Shown piece by piece: positions 1 to 15,104 of a DNA stretch of 24,981 nucleotides. The notes beneath the pieces were generated by a model. That model worked only from the letters and a program-made list of their open reading frames with translations, was not told the origin of the DNA and made no database searches. Positions within the stretch are counted from its first letter, which is position 1; each line of letters begins with the position of its first letter. A program made the position numbers and the translations under genes. This stretch comes from a bacterium. Its GTDB lineage: Bacteria; Moduliflexota; Moduliflexia; Moduliflexales; JAUQPW01. The DNA is taken from positions 1 through 24,981 of the forward strand of contig JAUQPW010000089.1 of the NCBI GenBank assembly GCA_030550175.1, read 5' to 3'.

Positions 1-70
1 ACCCCCCCACTCCCATACTCCCCCACTCCCATACTCCCCCACCCCCATACCTCCACACTCCCATACCCTC
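1..70. repeat. Pyrimidine-strand tandem-octamer repeat (ACTCCCAT/ACTCCCCC units), cut by the window edge. Same family as 7029-7121 and 13838-13896.
   Basis: Direct reading shows imperfect tandem units cactccca, tactcccc, cactccca, tactcccc, cacactccca. It lies immediately downstream of the minus-strand receiver gene stop at 74-76. The same motif recurs twice elsewhere in the window. Confidence 0.7.
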
Positions 71-73
71 ATT

Positions 74-475
74 TTATTGATCTGATTCTTCCAAAACCCA
101 TCGTACGATCTCAACGGCTTTATCTAGATTTAAGGGTTTAGAAATAAAATGCTCGGCTCCCGCACGTAAAGCCTCTTCAATCACTTCCTCATGGGAGATT
201 CCACTGATCAGAATAATGAGGGTATGAGGATTTATTCCCATAAAACGTCGGACCAGGGTAATTCCGTCCGTATCGGGTAAGGACATATCCATGGTAACAA
301 CGTCGGGTTTAAGTTCTTCAAAACGATGGAGAGCCTCCTCGCCCGACGTAGCTTCTCCAACGACTTCCCCACCCACCTGTTCTACCACCTTACTTAAGCT
401 TATACGCGCAAATCGGGAGTCGTCTACCAGGAGAAATCGAAATTTTTTTCCATCTTTTTTAAGAATCTCAGCCAT
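74..475 (-). CDS. cheY: CheY-like single-domain response regulator (receiver domain only)
   Basis: Translation FRFLLVDDSRFARISL...PDVVTMDMSLPDTDGITL...ISKPLN carries the DD acid pocket, the phospho-acceptor Asp in MDMSLPD, and a conserved Lys near the C-terminus. The ORF-track start at 493 is GTG; an in-frame ATG at 473-475 gives MAEILKKDGKKFRFLLVDD, which is the typical receiver N-terminal length. It lies about 25 nt downstream of the CheA stop on the same strand. Confidence 0.85.
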   Translation of the reverse strand: MAEILKKDGKKFRFLLVDDSRFARISLSKVVEQVGGEVVGEATSGEEALHRFEELKPDVVTMDMSLPDTDGITLVRRFMGINPHTLIILISGISHEEVIEEALRAGAEHFISKPLNLDKAVEIVRWVLEESDQ

Positions 476-500
476 AATTAGAGTATTCAGCACTCAGTAG

Positions 501-3500
501 CTAGTACTCTCGGTTATACATCTTGCCGATGAGGGCAGGTACATCCAAAATCAGAATCACCCGTCCGTCTCCAAGTTTGGAAGCACTGGAAACAATATCT
601 GTTTTGACAATCTTAGTATCCAAGGATTTAATAACCAATTCTTCTTTTTCTAAGGGTTGGTCCGTGACAATCCCTACTAATTCATCTCGTGCAACCCGTA
701 CCACCACTACAAATAACTTCTCATTCTGGATTTTAGGTTGAGGAACTCCCAAAATATCGTAAGGTCTCAGGAGGTGAATGACCTGACCTCTGAGTTGAAA
801 AACCTCCTGTTTTCCTATGATCTCGATGTTCTTTGTTGAAATTCTCAAGACTTCTACCACGAGAGATAAAGGAATGGCAAAAACGCGGTTCCCGATTTCC
901 AGCAGAAGGGCTTGAATAATGGCTAAAGTTAAAGGGAGTTTAACGATAAATCGGGTTCCTTTATTCAGTTGGCTTTCTACTTCTAAGGTACCATTAAGCT
1001 CTTCGATGACCTTACGAGCACTCTGGATTCCCGGACCAAACAAAAAGGAGCTTTCCTCACTTTCAGGAACGACTAATCCCCGATTAAAGAATACATTGAA
1101 AAAGTCAGAAATGGAGAGGTTTTCAGCTTCCTCGGGAGTGAAAAATTTATGTTGGATCGCTAAATTTTTCACCCGTACCAGGTCAGTTCCTCTCCCATCA
1201 TCGGAAATTTCGATAATAATTTGATTGCCGGCATGGTAAGAGTTGAGACTTACTCTACCTGTGGTCGGTTTACCCAGTTGGGCCCGTACAGAGGGAGGTT
1301 CGATTCCATATTCTATAACGCTTCGAAGAAGTTTTGTTAAAGGCTCCCCAATCAGATCCAGAATAGCTTTATCCAGTTCGGTGTGTTCTCCGGTTATTTC
1401 CAACTTCACTTCTTTACCTTTTTTTAGAGCCAGATCTCTAACCAGTCGAGGAAATCGTTTGAATACTACATCGATCGGCATCATGCGAACCTTCATGATA
1501 TTTTCTTGTAAGTTCAACAAATTTTTTCGAACCAACATGTTCGTCTTCATAAGCTGCTCGATCAAACGGGCTGTTTCTCCGGTAGGAAAAATAGAATTTA
1601 ACTTACTTAAACCCTGGGAAAGGGTCGCTCCTCCGATAACCAGTTCCCCAACCACATTCATGATTTCATCCAGCAGTTGATAATCTACACGTAAGGTTTT
1701 TTTAGCCGACGGTGTAGAAGTAAGGGGAGTATAGGAAGAGATTTCGAACTCCTCATCTACAGAATAGGAGGGCACAGGCTCAGAACCCGGTGAAAGGACT
1801 TCTACCCTACGGGTTTCGGATAAGGGGGGAAGTACAAAGGGAGATATACGAACAGCTTGAACAACTGCGGCTACTTTTCCCCGACGTTGGATCAACTCTT
1901 CAGATGCACTACTGGCCAGGATGAGTTGGAAGTGATTTGCTCTTTTTAATTCATTGCTCCCTAAAGGTGGGTTCACTTTGATAACCTCCCCCAGCCGGGA
2001 GAGCTTTCGAGTTACCATAAAAGCACCTGCAGAGTGCAGGGACCAATCGGGTGCAAATTCTATTTCTATTCGGAATACTTTTTTTCCTTTTTCTTGAGCT
2101 TCCTTGAGTTTTACTTCTTCATATCTAATCAGTTCAATACCTTCTTCCTGTTGATGAACCAGAGAGACGGCTGTTTCGGTTAAGGACCCTGTCACCAGTT
2201 GATTAATTTTTGTTAAAAGTGGCGTTAGATCCAGGGGGCTGGTTCCATCTGTTTTATAGTCATTGACCAATCTCCGAAGAGTATCCAGGCAATTAAAAAG
2301 AACGGTAATCGAACCCTGGGTAATAATTCCGTCAGATTTCTGAACGGCCTTAAGGGTCTCTTCCATATGGCGACTCAGGGAATTAATCTTTTCAAATCCG
2401 AGAAATCCCGAATTGCCTTTTAACGTGTGGAAGGCCGTTATAACATTTCTTAGAATATTTCGATCTCCAGGGGCTTTCTCAAGGGCCAGGATTCCTTTCT
2501 CCAGACCTTCCAGGATATCACCGGCCTCCTCGAAGAAAATTTCCAAAAATTCTTCATTTTCTTCTTCCTCCGCAACCCCCCCTTCACGGGTTATGAGAAC
2601 CAGCGAAGGATCTACAGCCTCCAACCATTCCGTTGTATACAATCTCTTTTCCCTAGGCATGGTGGAGATGATCCCGTTTTGAAACAGGAGCTCTCGAAAG
2701 GAAAGAAGCCCTATTTTAAAGAGGTTATCCATCTTCATGGAGTATTTATTGAGGGCCAGAATTTTCTCCAGCTCGATTTTATCAGCAGAAAGGGGCTCCG
2801 ATAAAATTGTGGCCGCTTCTTCTGGATTCTCGTTAATGAAATCTGTTGCCTTTTTAAAGGCCCGGATCAGAGCTTTAAGCGTGTCGGGATGTTGTTGAAG
2901 ATTCTCGTTCAAAACCATGAGAACACTCTGATCTACCAACCAGTTAATCTCTTCCTCATAGCCCGGTATGGCTGAACGGGAACCGGAGAAATAAAATTTA
3001 CCTCCTATGGCCTGGGCCCGGCTAGTCCAGGGTTCCCAACACGCTATCCCATCGACCTCTCCCCGTTGTAGCGCTTCTAACTGTTGAGCGGGAAGCAGGT
3101 CTACAAAGGTAACCCGCGTCAGATCTACTCCAAACTCCCGGGCCATACTCTGAAGGGCAATATAAACCGCGGCCCCTTTCGCCATTCCTATTTTCTTTCC
3201 CTCTAAATCCCTGGGAGTTACAATTCCAGAATCCTCCCGAATCACAACTTGCTGAGTTCCAGAAATATCTGCCAGAGGGGCCACAATTTTAACATCCAGG
3301 CCTCGATCCTGAAGAATGAGCGTGGTAACCGGAGTCTGGGTAAAGGCAAAAGGCTTCTCTTTGGCCTGAATCACTTCATCCGGCATTATGGTTCCAGAGG
3401 GAAGAAGTCGATATTCTACTTGTAGGCCTTCTTCATCAAAAAATCCCTTTTCTTTAGCTAATATCAACTGACTTGAAATGTTTGGATCTTTAACGCCATA

Positions 3501-3533
3501 AAGCTCGATTCTATCCACAACCCCATCCTCCAT
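501..3533 (-). CDS. cheA: CheA-family chemotaxis histidine kinase (1010 aa): N-terminal NMT1/SsuA-like substrate-binding domain, HPt (P1), dimerisation (P3), HATPase (P4) and C-terminal CheW-like (P5) domain
   Basis: The ATG start at 3531-3533 was verified. The N-terminal ~300 aa (VKIVAPLADISGTQQVVIRED...GKKIGMAKGAAVYIALQ...GEVDGIACWEPW) resemble ABC-type nitrate/sulfonate/bicarbonate periplasmic-binding (NMT1/SsuA) folds but have no signal peptide or TM segment. The HPt motif is ITAFHTLKGNSGFLGF, the dimerisation region is DYQLLDEIMNVVGELVI, the ATPase motifs are IEISDDGRGTD and GPGIQSARKVIEELNGTLEVESQLNKGTRF, and the CheW-like tail is RVFAIPLSLVVEVLRI...VVVVRVARDELVGIVTDQ. Confidence 0.85.
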   Translation of the reverse strand: MEDGVVDRIELYGVKDPNISSQLILAKEKGFFDEEGLQVEYRLLPSGTIMPDEVIQAKEKPFAFTQTPVTTLILQDRGLDVKIVAPLADISGTQQVVIREDSGIVTPRDLEGKKIGMAKGAAVYIALQSMAREFGVDLTRVTFVDLLPAQQLEALQRGEVDGIACWEPWTSRAQAIGGKFYFSGSRSAIPGYEEEINWLVDQSVLMVLNENLQQHPDTLKALIRAFKKATDFINENPEEAATILSEPLSADKIELEKILALNKYSMKMDNLFKIGLLSFRELLFQNGIISTMPREKRLYTTEWLEAVDPSLVLITREGGVAEEEENEEFLEIFFEEAGDILEGLEKGILALEKAPGDRNILRNVITAFHTLKGNSGFLGFEKINSLSRHMEETLKAVQKSDGIITQGSITVLFNCLDTLRRLVNDYKTDGTSPLDLTPLLTKINQLVTGSLTETAVSLVHQQEEGIELIRYEEVKLKEAQEKGKKVFRIEIEFAPDWSLHSAGAFMVTRKLSRLGEVIKVNPPLGSNELKRANHFQLILASSASEELIQRRGKVAAVVQAVRISPFVLPPLSETRRVEVLSPGSEPVPSYSVDEEFEISSYTPLTSTPSAKKTLRVDYQLLDEIMNVVGELVIGGATLSQGLSKLNSIFPTGETARLIEQLMKTNMLVRKNLLNLQENIMKVRMMPIDVVFKRFPRLVRDLALKKGKEVKLEITGEHTELDKAILDLIGEPLTKLLRSVIEYGIEPPSVRAQLGKPTTGRVSLNSYHAGNQIIIEISDDGRGTDLVRVKNLAIQHKFFTPEEAENLSISDFFNVFFNRGLVVPESEESSFLFGPGIQSARKVIEELNGTLEVESQLNKGTRFIVKLPLTLAIIQALLLEIGNRVFAIPLSLVVEVLRISTKNIEIIGKQEVFQLRGQVIHLLRPYDILGVPQPKIQNEKLFVVVVRVARDELVGIVTDQPLEKEELVIKSLDTKIVKTDIVSSASKLGDGRVILILDVPALIGKMYNREY

Positions 3534-3626
3534 GAGAGGGTTTTACTTTTGTTCCTTTAAAAGTTATATCCTTTATATCCACCTTTTTGATAAAGTCAAC
3601 TTTTTTGTGGTACTTCCTTATTTCCA

Positions 3627-3656
3627 TTGACATCATCAAATGGTGGGTCGTATTTA
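3627..3656 (+). promoter_or_regulatory. Candidate sigma70-type promoter for the inositol-phosphate synthase gene (TTGACA -35, 18-nt spacer, TATTTA -10)
   Basis: TTGACA sits at 3627-3632 and TATTTA at 3651-3656, in the divergent region between cheA and the ino1-like gene. This is sequence reading only. Confidence 0.3.
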
Positions 3657-3800
3657 AAAATTTATATTCTCATACCTTTATAGATCTAAATTTTAATCTG
3701 AGCTAGAGGAACACAGGATATAAGGAGGTTTCTAAAGTACAAAATTAACTTTAGCTCACCTTGGATATACCCTGTATTTCTCCGGCTTGATGCTACCTTC

Positions 3801-5117
3801 ATGATAGAGAAAGGTATTTCTATTAAGCCTGCGGAAGGTCGATTGGGAGTTTTACTTCCGGGATTAGGGGCCGTCAGTACTACTTTGATAGCAGGTGTTG
3901 AGCTTATTAAGAAAGGTCTGGGTCGCCCGATTGGGTCCCTCACCCAGCTCGGAACGATTCGTCTGGGAAAGCGAACGGATAAGCGAGTTCCTAAGATTAA
4001 AGATTTTGTTCCTTTGACCAAGCTAGAAGATCTGGTTTTTGGAGCCTGGGATATCTTTCAAGATAACGGCTATCAGGCTGCTTTGAAAGCGGGTGTTATT
4101 GAGAAAAGTTTACTGGATCAGGTTCGAAAGGAGTTGGAAGCTATCGTTCCCTGGCGTGCCGTATTTGATCAGGCCTATGTTAAACGGCTTTCCGGTGATA
4201 ATATCAAAAAAGGGCAGAACAAAATGGATTTAGCCTATCAGCTCATGGAAGATATTCAGCGTTTCAAAAAAGAGTGGAATTTATCCCGGATGGTTATGAT
4301 CTGGTGCGCCAGTACAGAGTCTTTTTTAGAACCTGACGAAGTCCATCAGAGTCTCAAGAACTTTGAATCCGGATTAAAAGAAAATCATCCCAAAATTGCC
4401 CCCAGCATGATTTACGCCTATGCTGCACTCTGTTCAGGGGTCCCCTTTGCCAATGGAGCTCCTAACCTCACGGTCGATATACCGGCTTTGGTCGAGTTAT
4501 CCCATCAGAATGGGGTTCCCATCGCCGGGAAAGATTTTAAAACTGGACAAACCCTTATGAAAACTATCCTTGCACCCGGTTTAAAGTCTAGAGTTCTGGG
4601 TCTAAAGGGTTGGTTTTCCACTAACCTTCTCGGAAATCGGGACGGAGAAGTCCTAGATGATCCGGCTTCTTTCAAAACCAAAGAAGAAAGCAAGCTATCG
4701 GCCCTTAATTATATTCTTCAGCCGGATCTCTACCCGGAACTTTATGAGAAGGTTATACATCAGGTTCATATTCACTATTATCCACCCCGAGGAGATAACA
4801 AAGAAGGTTGGGATAATATCGATATTTTTGGTTGGTTGGGATATCCCATGCAAATTAAAATTAACTTCCTCTGCAGAGATAGCATCCTGGCAGCTCCCAT
4901 CGTTCTGGATCTGGCTCTCTTCATGGATTTGGCGCAAAGATGCAATATGCGTGGAATCCAGGAATGGCTCTCGTTTTACTTTAAAAGTCCCATGTGCGCC
5001 CCTGAGCTTTACCCGGAACATGATCTTTTCATCCAGCTTATGAAGCTTAAAAATACTCTACGCTATATCCGGGGGGAGGAATTAATTACCCATTTGGGAC
5101 TCGAGTATTATGATTAA
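3801..5117 (+). CDS. ino1: myo-inositol-1-phosphate synthase (archaeal/bacterial short type, NAD-dependent)
   Basis: The blocks GVLLPGLGAVSTTLIAG, MIYAYAALCSGVPFANGAPNLTVDIPALVELSHQNGVPIAGKDFKTGQTLMKTILAPGL and FYFKSPM match the conserved blocks of Archaeoglobus-type MIPS (…SMLYAYAAL..LPYANFTPS…IPAL.ELA…GVPHAGNDGKTGETL.KT.LAP…FFFKSPM). Confidence 0.85.
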   Translation: MIEKGISIKPAEGRLGVLLPGLGAVSTTLIAGVELIKKGLGRPIGSLTQLGTIRLGKRTDKRVPKIKDFVPLTKLEDLVFGAWDIFQDNGYQAALKAGVIEKSLLDQVRKELEAIVPWRAVFDQAYVKRLSGDNIKKGQNKMDLAYQLMEDIQRFKKEWNLSRMVMIWCASTESFLEPDEVHQSLKNFESGLKENHPKIAPSMIYAYAALCSGVPFANGAPNLTVDIPALVELSHQNGVPIAGKDFKTGQTLMKTILAPGLKSRVLGLKGWFSTNLLGNRDGEVLDDPASFKTKEESKLSALNYILQPDLYPELYEKVIHQVHIHYYPPRGDNKEGWDNIDIFGWLGYPMQIKINFLCRDSILAAPIVLDLALFMDLAQRCNMRGIQEWLSFYFKSPMCAPELYPEHDLFIQLMKLKNTLRYIRGEELITHLGLEYYD

Positions 5118-13899: not shown

Positions 13900-14709
13900 T
13901 CAGGCAGAAATAATACAAATAGCCTCTGGAGTTCTGATATCCGGGACCAGACTTTCAGAGATAGTAAATTCATAAAAAACCTCTCCAAATCCGGAGAATG
14001 AGGTCATCAGATCCTGACCCAGAATAATCTGGTTACCGTTAACTGTATCTAAAAGTACTCCTTTGTTTTGAAGCACAGGAGTTTTAAAAATCCCTTCTGT
14101 AACCAGAGAACGTAGGTTTTCGATTTGGAGAACATCGCTGTCTTTATACAATCGAAACAGGCTGTTATAAAGAGGTGAAGCCAGAACCAGGGCATAGGGT
14201 CCCGGATATCCTGCTTTATCCAGTTGATTGGCAGCTTGAATCACATCTTCAATGGCTTGACCTACCTGACTCCAATCCCCTAACGGGATCTTATGGACAC
14301 CGGGTGTGTTAAGAATACCCGTAATAGAGAGGCTTTCGTAACCGAAAAATACCAGCTCATCCTCTTTAAGGATACAGTTTTTAGCGGCCTGAAATGCTGC
14401 ATCCAGGTCTAGAGGTTGGTGATAAGTTTCGTAAGCCTCAATCATGCTGATACTTAAAGAAAAGGAACTATAGATCTGGGGTATAGGAAGGGTAGGACTA
14501 CAGAGAATTTTAGCTGCTAGGGGGAGCCCTGCTTCTGCTATCCGCTCTGTTTTCGAAACGAGGGCCTTAAAACCAAGCCCGAGGGGGCCCTCTACATCCA
14601 GTAATTTTCTCCCCACCAATAAACTTTTCGCCGTGGAAACAACCAGTTCATCAATTTTCTCCCAAACCTTTGAGCTAATTGGGGCAGCTTCTCGATTGAG
14701 ATATTTCAT
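13900..14709 (-). CDS. Family-1 encapsulin nanocompartment shell protein (HK97 fold; linocin M18/CFP29-like)
   Basis: The length, the N-terminus MKYLNREAAPISSKVWEKIDE...GRKLLDVEGP and the internal ILGQDLMTSF parallel Thermotoga maritima encapsulin ([21 protein letters not shown]...GRKFVDVEGP...ILGQDLSIGY). An AAGGAG SD lies 11 nt upstream and overlaps the stop of the preceding ferritin-like gene. Confidence 0.85.
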   Translation of the reverse strand: MKYLNREAAPISSKVWEKIDELVVSTAKSLLVGRKLLDVEGPLGLGFKALVSKTERIAEAGLPLAAKILCSPTLPIPQIYSSFSLSISMIEAYETYHQPLDLDAAFQAAKNCILKEDELVFFGYESLSITGILNTPGVHKIPLGDWSQVGQAIEDVIQAANQLDKAGYPGPYALVLASPLYNSLFRLYKDSDVLQIENLRSLVTEGIFKTPVLQNKGVLLDTVNGNQIILGQDLMTSFSGFGEVFYEFTISESLVPDIRTPEAICIISA

Positions 14710-14714
14710 AACAA

Positions 14715-15104
14715 TTAACTCTCCTTTCTCTGCTTTAAGCTTCCGACGGTTTTAAGAATAGAAGTTCGAACGTTCTCTGAGGATGGTCCGGGTTTACTGT
14801 TCTTCATTTCTAGGGTCTCTATTTGTGTAATTTCTCTTTCACTAAAGAGATAGGTCCGCAAATGTCCTTCAAAAGTCGGATTATTTCGTCGAATCCACTC
14901 CAGGACCATGGCAGCGTGTTCCATTTCTTCATCTCGATTATGAGCCAGAATTCTTCTCAGTTCTTCATCTGTACATACATCTACCCGCTGTTGGTACCAA
15001 TCAATAGCTTCTAACTCCTCTATAAGAGACTTAATCGCTCTGGACATATTCAGAGTTTTCTCACTGATTTTTTCATAAGGTTCATGCCAACTTTCCGATC
15101 CCAT
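14715..15104 (-). CDS. Encapsulated ferritin-like protein (EncFtn/Flp cargo) with C-terminal cargo-loading peptide
   Basis: The ferritin-like di-iron motifs are EELEAIDWYQQRVDVCTDEELRRILAHNRDEEMEHAAMVLEWIRR (E...E..H pattern). The C-terminal tail ...SILKTVGSLKQRKES contains the TVGSLK-type encapsulin targeting consensus. The gene is immediately upstream of, and translationally coupled to, the shell gene. The ATG and an AGGAGA SD were verified. Confidence 0.85.
   Translation of the reverse strand: MGSESWHEPYEKISEKTLNMSRAIKSLIEELEAIDWYQQRVDVCTDEELRRILAHNRDEEMEHAAMVLEWIRRNNPTFEGHLRTYLFSEREITQIETLEMKNSKPGPSSENVRTSILKTVGSLKQRKES

Follow-up and report, generated by a model that had tools for sequence, protein, structure and literature searches.

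Chemosensory systems are defined by their CheA, a kinase that in the textbook view lacks any input domain and answers to receptor arrays alone. How might a CheA operate that carries a solute-binding fold at its own N-terminus? The question is raised by a gene on the bacterial contig JAUQPW010000089.1 (assembly GCA_030550175.1), analysed here over its whole length of 24,981 bp (the window), in which a solute-binding protein (SBP) domain of the NMT1/SsuA type lies directly before the P1 domain of a CheA, with a gene for a CheY-like response regulator following. In a survey of CheA architectures, CheA is described as a protein that has no domain for sensing (input) and works with chemoreceptors and CheW (PMC10782961). 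The window protein departs from this description of a receptor-dependent kinase without a sensor of its own, in that the N-terminal SBP is present and that methyl-accepting chemotaxis proteins (MCPs) and CheW are absent from the contig and from within ±10 kb of homologous loci. The domains that define CheA, i.e. P1 with a phosphorylatable histidine, P3, P4 and P5, are all present. Based on the analyses below, we propose with moderate confidence that the built-in SBP serves as a sensor gating a P1-CheY phosphorelay, that this relay belongs to a non-flagellar pathway of KSB3 bacteria (Moduliflexota) and a related uncultured lineage, and that the window copy is a non-canonical member resembling CheA3 of Rhodobacter (Cereibacter) sphaeroides.

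The fusion gene and the domains of its product are as follows.

501..3533, minus strand: SBP-CheA fusion gene; probable true start GTG 3518, giving 1005 aa
2604..3518, minus strand: two-lobe SBP domain of NMT1/SsuA type (residues 6-310; Pfam, AlphaFold2 (AF2) and Foldseek), cytoplasmic and without signal peptide
2553..2603, minus strand: acidic linker between SBP and P1, LVLITREGGVAEEEENE (residues 311-327), of low predicted local distance difference test (pLDDT) score
2181..2552, minus strand: P1/Hpt (residues 328-451; Pfam Hpt 41.6 bits against a cut-off of 24.6), phospho-acceptor His369
1848..2078, minus strand: P2 CheY-binding domain (residues 486-562; Pfam P2 E 4.5e-9, 36.7 bits against a cut-off of 23)
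1488..1700, minus strand: P3 dimerisation domain (residues 612-682; Pfam H-kinase_dim; aligned to Thermotoga maritima CheA 1B3Q)
918..1487, minus strand: P4 HATPase_c (residues 683-872); fold and G1 box kept, N, F and G2 boxes degenerate
519..917, minus strand: P5 CheW-like domain (residues 873-1005; Pfam CheW E 2.1e-21)

The open reading frame (ORF) at 501..3533 was confirmed, its longest form in the ORF listing being 1010 aa from ATG 3533. The likelier start is GTG 3518, which is preceded by a GGAGGA Shine-Dalgarno sequence at a distance of 7 nt and shortens the protein from 1010 to 1005 aa, leaving only about three residues ahead of the first β-strand. Gene-caller and homologue versions of the fusion are 1002-1005 aa long and begin MKKIELYG or VKRIKLYG; the annotated-length start at ATG 3533 is probably wrong, GTG 3518 agreeing with both the 1005-aa calls and the homologue N-termini. 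In the Pfam scan, where every domain match exceeded the gathering cut-off, NMT1 (PF09084) covers residues 22-240 (E 5.7e-30, 105 bits against a cut-off of 20.5) and NMT1_2 residues 21-242, followed by Hpt (328-420), P2 (486-562), H-kinase_dim (612-682), HATPase_c (753-869) and CheW (874-1002). The domain order is thus SBP, Hpt (P1), P2, P3, P4 and P5, and the matches within residues 1-320 and 320-1010 include those that an earlier note on this DNA, made from the sequence alone, had expected. NCBIfam agrees in outline, its CheA models spanning residues 327-1002 and SsuA_fam residues 19-263; the fusion stays below the cut-offs of the CheA equivalogs NF041336 (299.6 against 950) and NF007835 (278.5 against 793), which are clade-specific and hence weak evidence, and below that of SsuA_fam TIGR01728 (106 against 163.5 bits). 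P3-P5 align to the corresponding domains of 1B3Q and 3JA6 at E 1e-73. What the earlier note had called the protein's own CheW domain is the ordinary P5 common to all CheAs.

Judged from its sequence, the fusion protein is wholly cytoplasmic. Hydrophobicity along the sequence reveals no transmembrane segment, the most hydrophobic 19-residue stretch being the canonical P4/P5 strand LPLTLAIIQALL that is also found in T. maritima CheA, and neither a signal peptide nor a lipobox is detected at the N-terminus, which is not hydrophobic. There is no room for a signal peptide, because the first β-strand begins at residue 9 and the ORF is already the longest possible. An upstream extension or signal peptide was therefore rejected, as the ORF is maximal, the start with the Shine-Dalgarno sequence shortens it and homologues begin at the same place. 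In agreement with the earlier note, the SBP fold thus sits immediately ahead of P1 in a protein devoid of export signal and membrane helix.

The structure predicted for residues 1-325 is a confident two-lobe fold (pLDDT 93.3, predicted template modelling score (pTM) 0.90). Its top matches in the Protein Data Bank (PDB) are TauA, SsuA, ThiY and THI5 (Foldseek; E ~1e-18, template modelling (TM) scores 0.7-0.8), with TauA 6SSY at E 7e-19 and TM 0.72-0.78, and TauA and SsuA together at TM 0.72-0.79. PqqT is matched as well, lower down CmpA and NrtA (ranks 38-46), and the matches also include the cytoplasmic C-terminal regulatory domains of CmpC (9UAK) and NrtC (8WM7). By family models and by its two-lobe α/β fold, the domain is an NMT1/SsuA-type (class II) SBP. 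The Pfam scan of the window ORFs detected no ABC permease or ATPase gene that could partner it. Between SBP and P1 the linker is poorly defined, with pLDDT below 50 for residues 318-325 in the SBP-domain model and for the whole linker in the full-length model (28-sequence alignment; pLDDT 64, pTM 0.31), which was used for domain boundaries only.

To assess the cleft, the ligand contacts of TauA, i.e. Gln30, Ser60/Gly61, Gly79, Glu106, Thr132, Trp176 and Asp205 (PMC6906117), were mapped onto the fusion by a HMMER alignment at ~16% identity. Their equivalents are G13/V14, S46/G47, T65, Q94, A122, W166 and S203, respectively. All seven are at least 90% conserved among 65 sequences of SBP-CheA proteins and of related proteins joining the SBP to a receiver domain (SBP-REC, see below), a level that just 30% of columns reach, and the pocket is thus under strong constraint. 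The conserved cleft positions are, at the level of sequence, consistent with ligand binding, so that of the built-in ligand-binding module claimed earlier the fold is confirmed and the ligand is putative. The residues with which TauA coordinates sulfonate and taurine are not kept (Gln30 gone, Glu to Gln, Thr to Ala, Asp to Ser). Since the pocket lacks them, SsuA/NMT1 'type' names a fold and not a ligand; the earlier designation as a nitrate/sulfonate/bicarbonate-type domain holds in this structural sense alone. Gln, Asn, Ser, Thr, Trp, Asp and Glu abound among the invariant pocket residues, and no Lys, Arg or His is conserved at those sites. Pocket chemistry and gene context suggest that the ligand is not a TauA-type sulfonate; a carbohydrate such as a hexose, or a hexose phosphate, by which carbon status would be reported, is a candidate. 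The structural matches also include the enzymes THI5 and DszB. A THI5- or DszB-like enzymatic role was set aside, the invariant residues of the family falling, according to the alignment, at positions equivalent to the TauA pocket.

The fusion is a conserved but rare architecture. Among 5.8 billion proteins searched, exactly the NMT1, Hpt, P2, dimerisation, HATPase and CheW arrangement was found in ~30 clusters, which are 50-100% identical to the window protein. A scan of GTDB species genomes, in which the window's own lineage was not among the genomes returned, found it in seven Moduliflexota (KSB3) genomes, namely UASB14 (Ca. Moduliflexus flocculans), UASB270, Ca. Vecturithrix sp. AnMBR.bin507, three Ca. 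Moduliflexus metagenome-assembled genomes (MAGs) and a 'candidate division KSB3' MAG. When residues 1-440 were compared with 1.84 billion 50%-identity representatives (HMMER), the NMT1-Hpt junction was spanned by only one protein (P0012) among the 150 best matches. SBP-REC proteins came next, followed by SBPs of the ordinary secreted kind and proteins with several Hpt domains. In a neighbour-joining tree, the SBP domains borne by CheAs form a monophyletic group. Between the window and the KSB3 group the SBP is the best-conserved domain (67% identity) and P5 the second (58%), ahead of P3 (54%), P4 (48%), P1 (44%) and P2 (41%). The fusion is hence conserved in KSB3 and in a related uncultured lineage. 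That it is an artefact, an SBP gene having been joined to cheA by mis-assembly, a missed stop or a frameshift, or alternatively that the N-terminal domain is exported, has a vanishingly small probability: the same unbroken ORF occurs in independent NCBI, JGI, ENA and Logan assemblies, linker and junction are 76% conserved inside the KSB3 group, the 267 nt between the fusion ORF and the divergent gene leave no coding room upstream, and a hydrophobic segment is absent. Nothing was found in favour of an artefact, which conservation and independent assemblies rule out.

The remark of the earlier note that such an architecture is rarely discussed is borne out by the literature covered. The accessible part of the CheA survey and its supplements has no NMT1, SBP or Moduliflexus entry, the variants treated there comprising REC and CheC/CheX fusions, duplications and bipartite forms (PMC10782961), and a literature search for CheA joined to an NMT1-type domain matched only unrelated papers on N-myristoyltransferase and yeast nmt1. 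Intracellular sensors on the chemosensory baseplate (CheWS and CheW-CZB; PMC10653840) and cytoplasmic regulators of NMT1 fold (NrtC, CmpC and NasS) are already known; an SBP on CheA, along with the remodelled ATP site and the glycogen-gene context described below, is to our knowledge undescribed.

The phosphotransfer domain and the ATP-binding domain have fared differently in the fusion. The P1 triad of His369 (codon 2427-2429), Lys372 and Glu391, equivalent to His48, Lys51 and Glu70 of Escherichia coli CheA, is invariant in 33/33 fusion-family members and in 59/59 other CheAs. P4 of the window protein was aligned without gaps to T. maritima CheA and compared in the same two sets, obtained from one search. 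The catalytic ATP/Mg2+ site comprises His376/Asn380 (N box), Asp420/Gly422 (G1), Phe455/Phe459 (F box), Gly470/472/474 (G2) and Thr499 (GT block), with roles in ATP and Mg2+ binding as assigned previously (PMC10410752). The corresponding stretches of the window protein are the following.

1299..1334, minus strand: degenerate N box KLLRSVIEYGIE (residues 734-745), canonical HLLRNAIDHGIE; His to Lys734, Mg-binding Asn to Ser738, His to Tyr742
1188-1202, minus strand: G1 box DDGRG, kept
1017..1091, minus strand: degenerate F box/ATP lid/G2 FFNRGLVVPESEESSFLFGPGIQSA (residues 815-839), canonical LFVPGFST...SGRGVGMDVV

In the window and its family the canonical F-x-P-G-F-S-T of the F box reads F-N-R-G-L-V-V, and G-R-G-V-G of G2 reads L-F-G-P-G. 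His376, Asn380, Phe459 and Gly470 (E. coli numbering) are replaced in the window protein by K734, S738, L820 and L831, and G1, F455, G472, G474 and T499 are kept, so that the catalytic-site signature of CheA appears incomplete at the sequence level. His376 is present in all 59 other CheAs, as are Asn380 (23/33 in the fusion family), Ser460 (3/33), Gly470 (16/33), Gly472 (9/33) and Gly474 (29/33), and Phe459 is kept in 1/33 against 51/59. Asn380 is changed to Ser in all eight members of the window's subclade and to His in P0022 and P0028. In the latter two (L009/L019 lineage, KSB3 branch) the N-box Asn has been lost independently for a second time (HLIRHTIDHGIE and HLIRHAIEQSIE), and P0028 additionally lacks G474 and the GT Thr. 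The whole fusion family thus has, as far as its sequences tell, a remodelled ATP lid, perhaps because P1 now bears a 35-kDa domain. P4 is not decaying and is under purifying selection despite its degenerate motifs, as the ratio of nonsynonymous to synonymous substitution rates is 0.05 between the window and a 95%-identical locus (L003) and ~0.1 relative to a 74%-identical one (L010). Of the designation as a kinase in the earlier note, the P1-P5 domains stand, and with the N-box His and Asn, Phe459 and Gly470 absent, canonical autophosphorylation is doubtful, since the window's subclade has lost the Mg ligand (Asn380 to Ser738) and other ATP-site residues. The window copy probably does not autophosphorylate in the canonical way, and on balance its His369 would be charged in trans or weakly.

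The partner of the fusion and the divergent neighbour on its other side are these.

74..475/493, minus strand: CheY-like single-domain response regulator, 133 aa from ATG 475 (gene callers), ORF from GTG 493
3801..5117, plus strand: myo-inositol-1-phosphate synthase, divergent; conserved neighbour in the window's subclade (window, L001-L004 and L010)

The CheY-like protein matches Pfam Response_reg (PF00072; E 2.3e-25, 89 bits), and its best PDB matches are CheY of Pyrococcus horikoshii and T. maritima (E 1e-30 to 1e-27). The DD pair, the acceptor Asp in TMDMS, the Ser in ILISG and the Lys in SKP can be read from its sequence, in agreement with a predicted stand-alone receiver of the CheY type with acidic pocket, acceptor Asp, Thr/Ser and Lys. 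It begins 7-25 nt after the fusion gene, and the two are predicted to be co-transcribed; a promoter and terminator scan of window positions 1-4000 gave sites no commoner than in shuffled sequence. The regulator is 66-69% identical to the one beside every KSB3 fusion gene, exceeding the CheA core (44-47%).

No MCP, CheW, CheR or CheB was detected by Pfam in the 17 other window ORFs of at least 100 aa, within ±10 kb in L003, or within 10 kb in any of the ~15 fusion loci. The earlier observation of a single CheY without MCP, CheB or CheR therefore extends to CheW in the window, and the pairing of cheA and cheY apart from MCP, CheR and CheB genes holds in every context examined. Because the contig ends 73 nt past the CheY gene, the downstream context had to be read from the related loci L003 and L010, in which a convergent aminotransferase gene follows the pair. 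In L010 (8987-10492) a 501-aa REC-GAF-GAF protein is encoded directly downstream of cheY; it is absent there in L003. Positions 1-73 of the window hold a leftover frame for a Gly/Trp-rich low-complexity peptide, NEGMGVWRYGGGGVWEWGSMGVGG, and the independent Logan assemblies L001 and L002 break within ~100 nt after the same CheY gene, which together suggests a repeat or hard-to-assemble sequence at this point.

A different and highly regular context is found in KSB3. A glgC-like glucose-1-phosphate adenylyltransferase gene, the fusion cheA, cheY and a gene for a phosphohexomutase of the PGM/PMM family (pgm) follow each other with gaps of 10-100 nt in 7/7 KSB3 species genomes and three metagenome loci, in Vecturithrix with a convergent gene for a glgX-like debranching enzyme after pgm. 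The search for fusions and their neighbours proposed in the earlier note hence yields ~30 clusters, with glgC/pgm or inositol-1-phosphate synthase contexts at the loci examined, a neighbourhood that the note does not mention, and the common theme of the neighbours is enzymes of glucose phosphates and α-glucan. A gene for a CHASE2 and sigma54-activator protein of ~880 aa is always divergent upstream of the KSB3 cluster (L005:5682-8330; equivalents in L009, L011 and L013-L019), and this activator may regulate glgC-cheA-cheY-pgm.

The rest of the window encodes an S8 protease, MFS and HlyD efflux proteins, YkuD, a clostripain-like peptidase, ArgG, SMC, a patatin and a macro domain protein. Positions 13900-15104 (minus strand) hold a nanocompartment iron-storage pair, i.e. 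an encapsulin shell (Linocin_M18, E 2e-66) with an adjacent gene for EncFtn-like ferritin cargo. Regarding taxonomy, the MAG that contains L003 (GCA_035559535.1) is labelled 'Candidatus Limnocylindrales' (Chloroflexota) at NCBI, a label that looks doubtful. The window contig has ~44% G+C, which seems low for Limnocylindrales; its ArgG is nearest (72-78%) to proteins labelled Tectomicrobia and Latescibacteria, and its CheA, CheY and SBP genes are nearest to KSB3.

Outside CheA, the SBP domain has its nearest relatives in ~459-aa SBP-REC proteins, which make up more than 280 clusters and have an N-terminal SBP free of export signals and a C-terminal receiver; those with a named source are all from KSB3. 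In the neighbour-joining tree the CheA-borne SBPs are sister to one SBP-REC clade, all four sampled members of which (4/4) head a cluster encoding SBP-REC, CheR, a HEAT-repeat protein (~735 aa), a second CheR and CheB. These clusters come from four lineages with differing flanks.

L007:8001-14399: SBP-REC/CheR/HEAT/CheR/CheB cluster
L008:8001-14477: SBP-REC/CheR/HEAT/CheR/CheB cluster
L024:9001-15551: SBP-REC/CheR/HEAT/CheR/CheB cluster
L028:1288-7797: SBP-REC/CheR/HEAT/CheR/CheB cluster

None of the four contains MCP, CheW or CheA genes. In one lineage (L024 and L025) an α-glucan phosphorylase gene comes directly after the cluster. The HEAT-repeat protein is a candidate methylation substrate of the CheRs, and a literature search found no HEAT-repeat/CheR/CheB operon. 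Co-occurrence with the fusion was checked in two genomes, UASB14 (L013 and L007) and AnMBR.bin507 (L016 and L008), and the fusion CheA and the cluster are present in the same assembly in both. SBP-REC proteins (P0093-P0212) occur several per genome, some as orphans; the more distant paralogue P0209 (L026:8001-9383) is an orphan adjoining a radical-SAM gene. These findings suggest that Moduliflexota use the SBP fold generally as a signalling module in the cytoplasm, which, by analogy to NasS with NasT (PMC3795266), may talk to receiver domains. Because P5 is conserved and sister SBPs head such operons in the same genomes, it is doubtful that the cheA-cheY pair is the self-contained system envisaged earlier.

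Taken together, we propose that the fusion operates as follows. The SBP domain would sense an intracellular small molecule and close upon binding it; closure would be relayed via the 17-residue acidic linker and gate access of His369 in P1 to the phosphodonor as well as to P2-bound CheY. Phosphorylated CheY would then act through protein-protein contact on a non-motor target, in a non-flagellar, chemosensory-like pathway that would be genetically linked to α-glucan and hexose-phosphate metabolism. The window-type protein would accordingly serve as a ligand-gated P1 phosphorelay and scaffold, with a histidine that is charged in trans or only very slowly, cf. CheA3 of R. sphaeroides.

Several points weigh against this proposal. 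The strong conservation of P5 suggests that docking to CheW and receptors persists, which makes receptor-mediated sensing possible, and KSB3 genomes encode more than 60 MCPs (PMC4312070). In most KSB3 members both His and Asn of the N box are retained, so these proteins may be active kinases, a Ser in place of the Asn might keep some activity, and Bilwes et al., as cited in PMC10410752, argued that G2 is inessential for nucleotide affinity, by which a loss of activity is unproven even for the lid changes. The full-length model (pLDDT 64) is too poor to reveal a contact of the SBP with P1 or P4, and the pocket assignment, with its putative ligand, depends on a sequence alignment to TauA at ~16% identity. 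Finally, the gene order shared by related genomes may reflect common descent and not function, and the glgC/pgm context is absent from the window's lineage. In line with some of these points, the fusion could be an ordinary receptor-coupled CheA of KSB3 for gliding or type IV pilus motility, active despite its odd ATP lid, with the SBP as a secondary metabolic input. All five CheA domains are present with P5 and P3 well conserved, in most family members His and Asn of the N box, as well as G1 and the GT block, are retained, CheA genes can sit apart from receptor genes, and KSB3, besides their many MCPs, glide towards glucose and maltose (PMC4312070). We nevertheless consider this explanation unlikely, as MCP, CheW, CheR and CheB genes are missing within 10 kb at ~15 loci, the F box and G2 are degenerate family-wide, the N-box Asn has been lost at least twice and the neighbours are metabolic and not motility genes.

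The SBP-REC relatives, in turn, invite the explanation that the SBP is a ligand-controlled binder of receiver domains, following the NasS-NasT/AmiC-AmiR principle, and that the fusion CheA and the SBP-REC/CheR/HEAT/CheR/CheB cluster form one pathway without MCPs. The abundance of these relatives, the sister clade whose sampled members all head the five-gene operon devoid of MCP, CheW and CheA, the presence of both modules in UASB14 and AnMBR.bin507, and the precedent of cytoplasmic, NrtA-like NasS, which binds the REC-ANTAR protein NasT and frees it upon ligand binding (PMC3795266), all favour it. Against this, P2 already is a CheY dock, the interaction is putative, orphan SBP-REC paralogues exist, and the two genomes with co-occurrence both have very large signalling repertoires; we therefore judge it improbable, and note that it is compatible with small-molecule sensing and not opposed to it. 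Even less probable is a wider circuit, in which Moduliflexota and relatives would run an MCP-independent, chemosensory-like system with cytoplasmic SBP folds in place of chemoreceptors, setting glycogen and hexose-phosphate flux and not motility. One SBP would be fused to CheA and a sister SBP to a receiver domain, the HEAT protein would serve the two CheRs and CheB as a substrate or scaffold, and the fusion CheA with its remodelled or dead ATP site would be a ligand-gated phosphorelay hub, the targets being glgC, pgm, glgX, glgP and inositol-1-phosphate synthase. A pure pseudokinase or scaffold without phosphoryl flow, its P4 reused as a binding surface, would account for the loss of the Mg-binding Asn from a domain under strong purifying selection, and would resemble DivL, reportedly a repurposed histidine kinase whose CA domain senses phosphorylated DivK. 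This is very unlikely, because the P1 triad is invariant (33/33) and P2 and the acceptor site of CheY are retained, which argues that phosphotransfer chemistry is still selected.

If a ligand-gated relay is indeed formed, a CheA with a built-in metabolite-binding domain would be a second input route into the chemosensory machinery. The family also provides natural ATP-lid and N-box variants on an intact P1, and hence a useful test case for the evolution of P1-P4 docking and trans-phosphorylation. In anaerobic wastewater reactors KSB3/Moduliflexota respond to sugars by causing filamentous bulking, and a signalling module among glycogen genes is a concrete candidate for carbon-status sensing in these organisms.

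Compared to the canonical CheA of E. coli and T. maritima, the fusion agrees in its five domains and their order, in its intact P1 triad, G1 and GT motifs and in having a CheY partner, but it has ~310 SBP residues before P1, degenerate N, F and G2 boxes and a locus outside any MCP/CheW/CheR/CheB neighbourhood. Closer in the ATP site is CheA3 of R. sphaeroides, which, according to the survey, has an intact P1 and a non-functional HATPase and receives its phosphoryl group on the histidine from CheA4 (PMC10782961). CheA3 and CheA4 share with the fusion a phosphorylatable P1 and P5 and an HATPase domain without Mg2+/ATP-binding residues; in contrast to CheA3, which has no SBP, the P4 fold of the window protein is complete, with no helices deleted and under strong purifying selection. 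A partner kinase of the CheA4 type (P3-P4-P5 only) was not detected, as there is no second CheA in the window, L003 or L010.

With regard to the SBP, both structure (TM 0.72-0.79) and sequence are matched best by TauA and SsuA, and equivalents of their Ser-Gly loop and Trp176 are conserved in the fusion, which differs in lacking a signal peptide and ABC partner genes and in the replacement of Gln30, Glu106, Thr132 and Asp205. The C-terminal domains of NrtC (8WM7) and CmpC (9UAK), together with NasS, are likewise SBPs of the same superfamily without export signal that act as intracellular sensors controlling a partner (PMC3795266). Their partner is an ABC ATPase or a REC-ANTAR antiterminator and their ligands are nitrate, nitrite and bicarbonate, whereas the fusion SBP, although cytoplasmic too, has no ANTAR partner; the NrtC and CmpC structures match it less well than TauA and SsuA do, and NrtA and CmpA are also weaker matches (ranks 38-46). 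A further parallel is CheWS of Treponema denticola, a CheW fused to an SAM-sensing, CheR-like domain and anchored in the array (PMC10653840). As in CheWS and CheW-CZB, an intracellular small-molecule sensor is fused to a baseplate component and not to a receptor (PMC10653840). CheWS carries its sensor on CheW and not on CheA, uses another fold, has a known ligand and is experimentally characterised; the fusion described here would be its kinase-borne counterpart.

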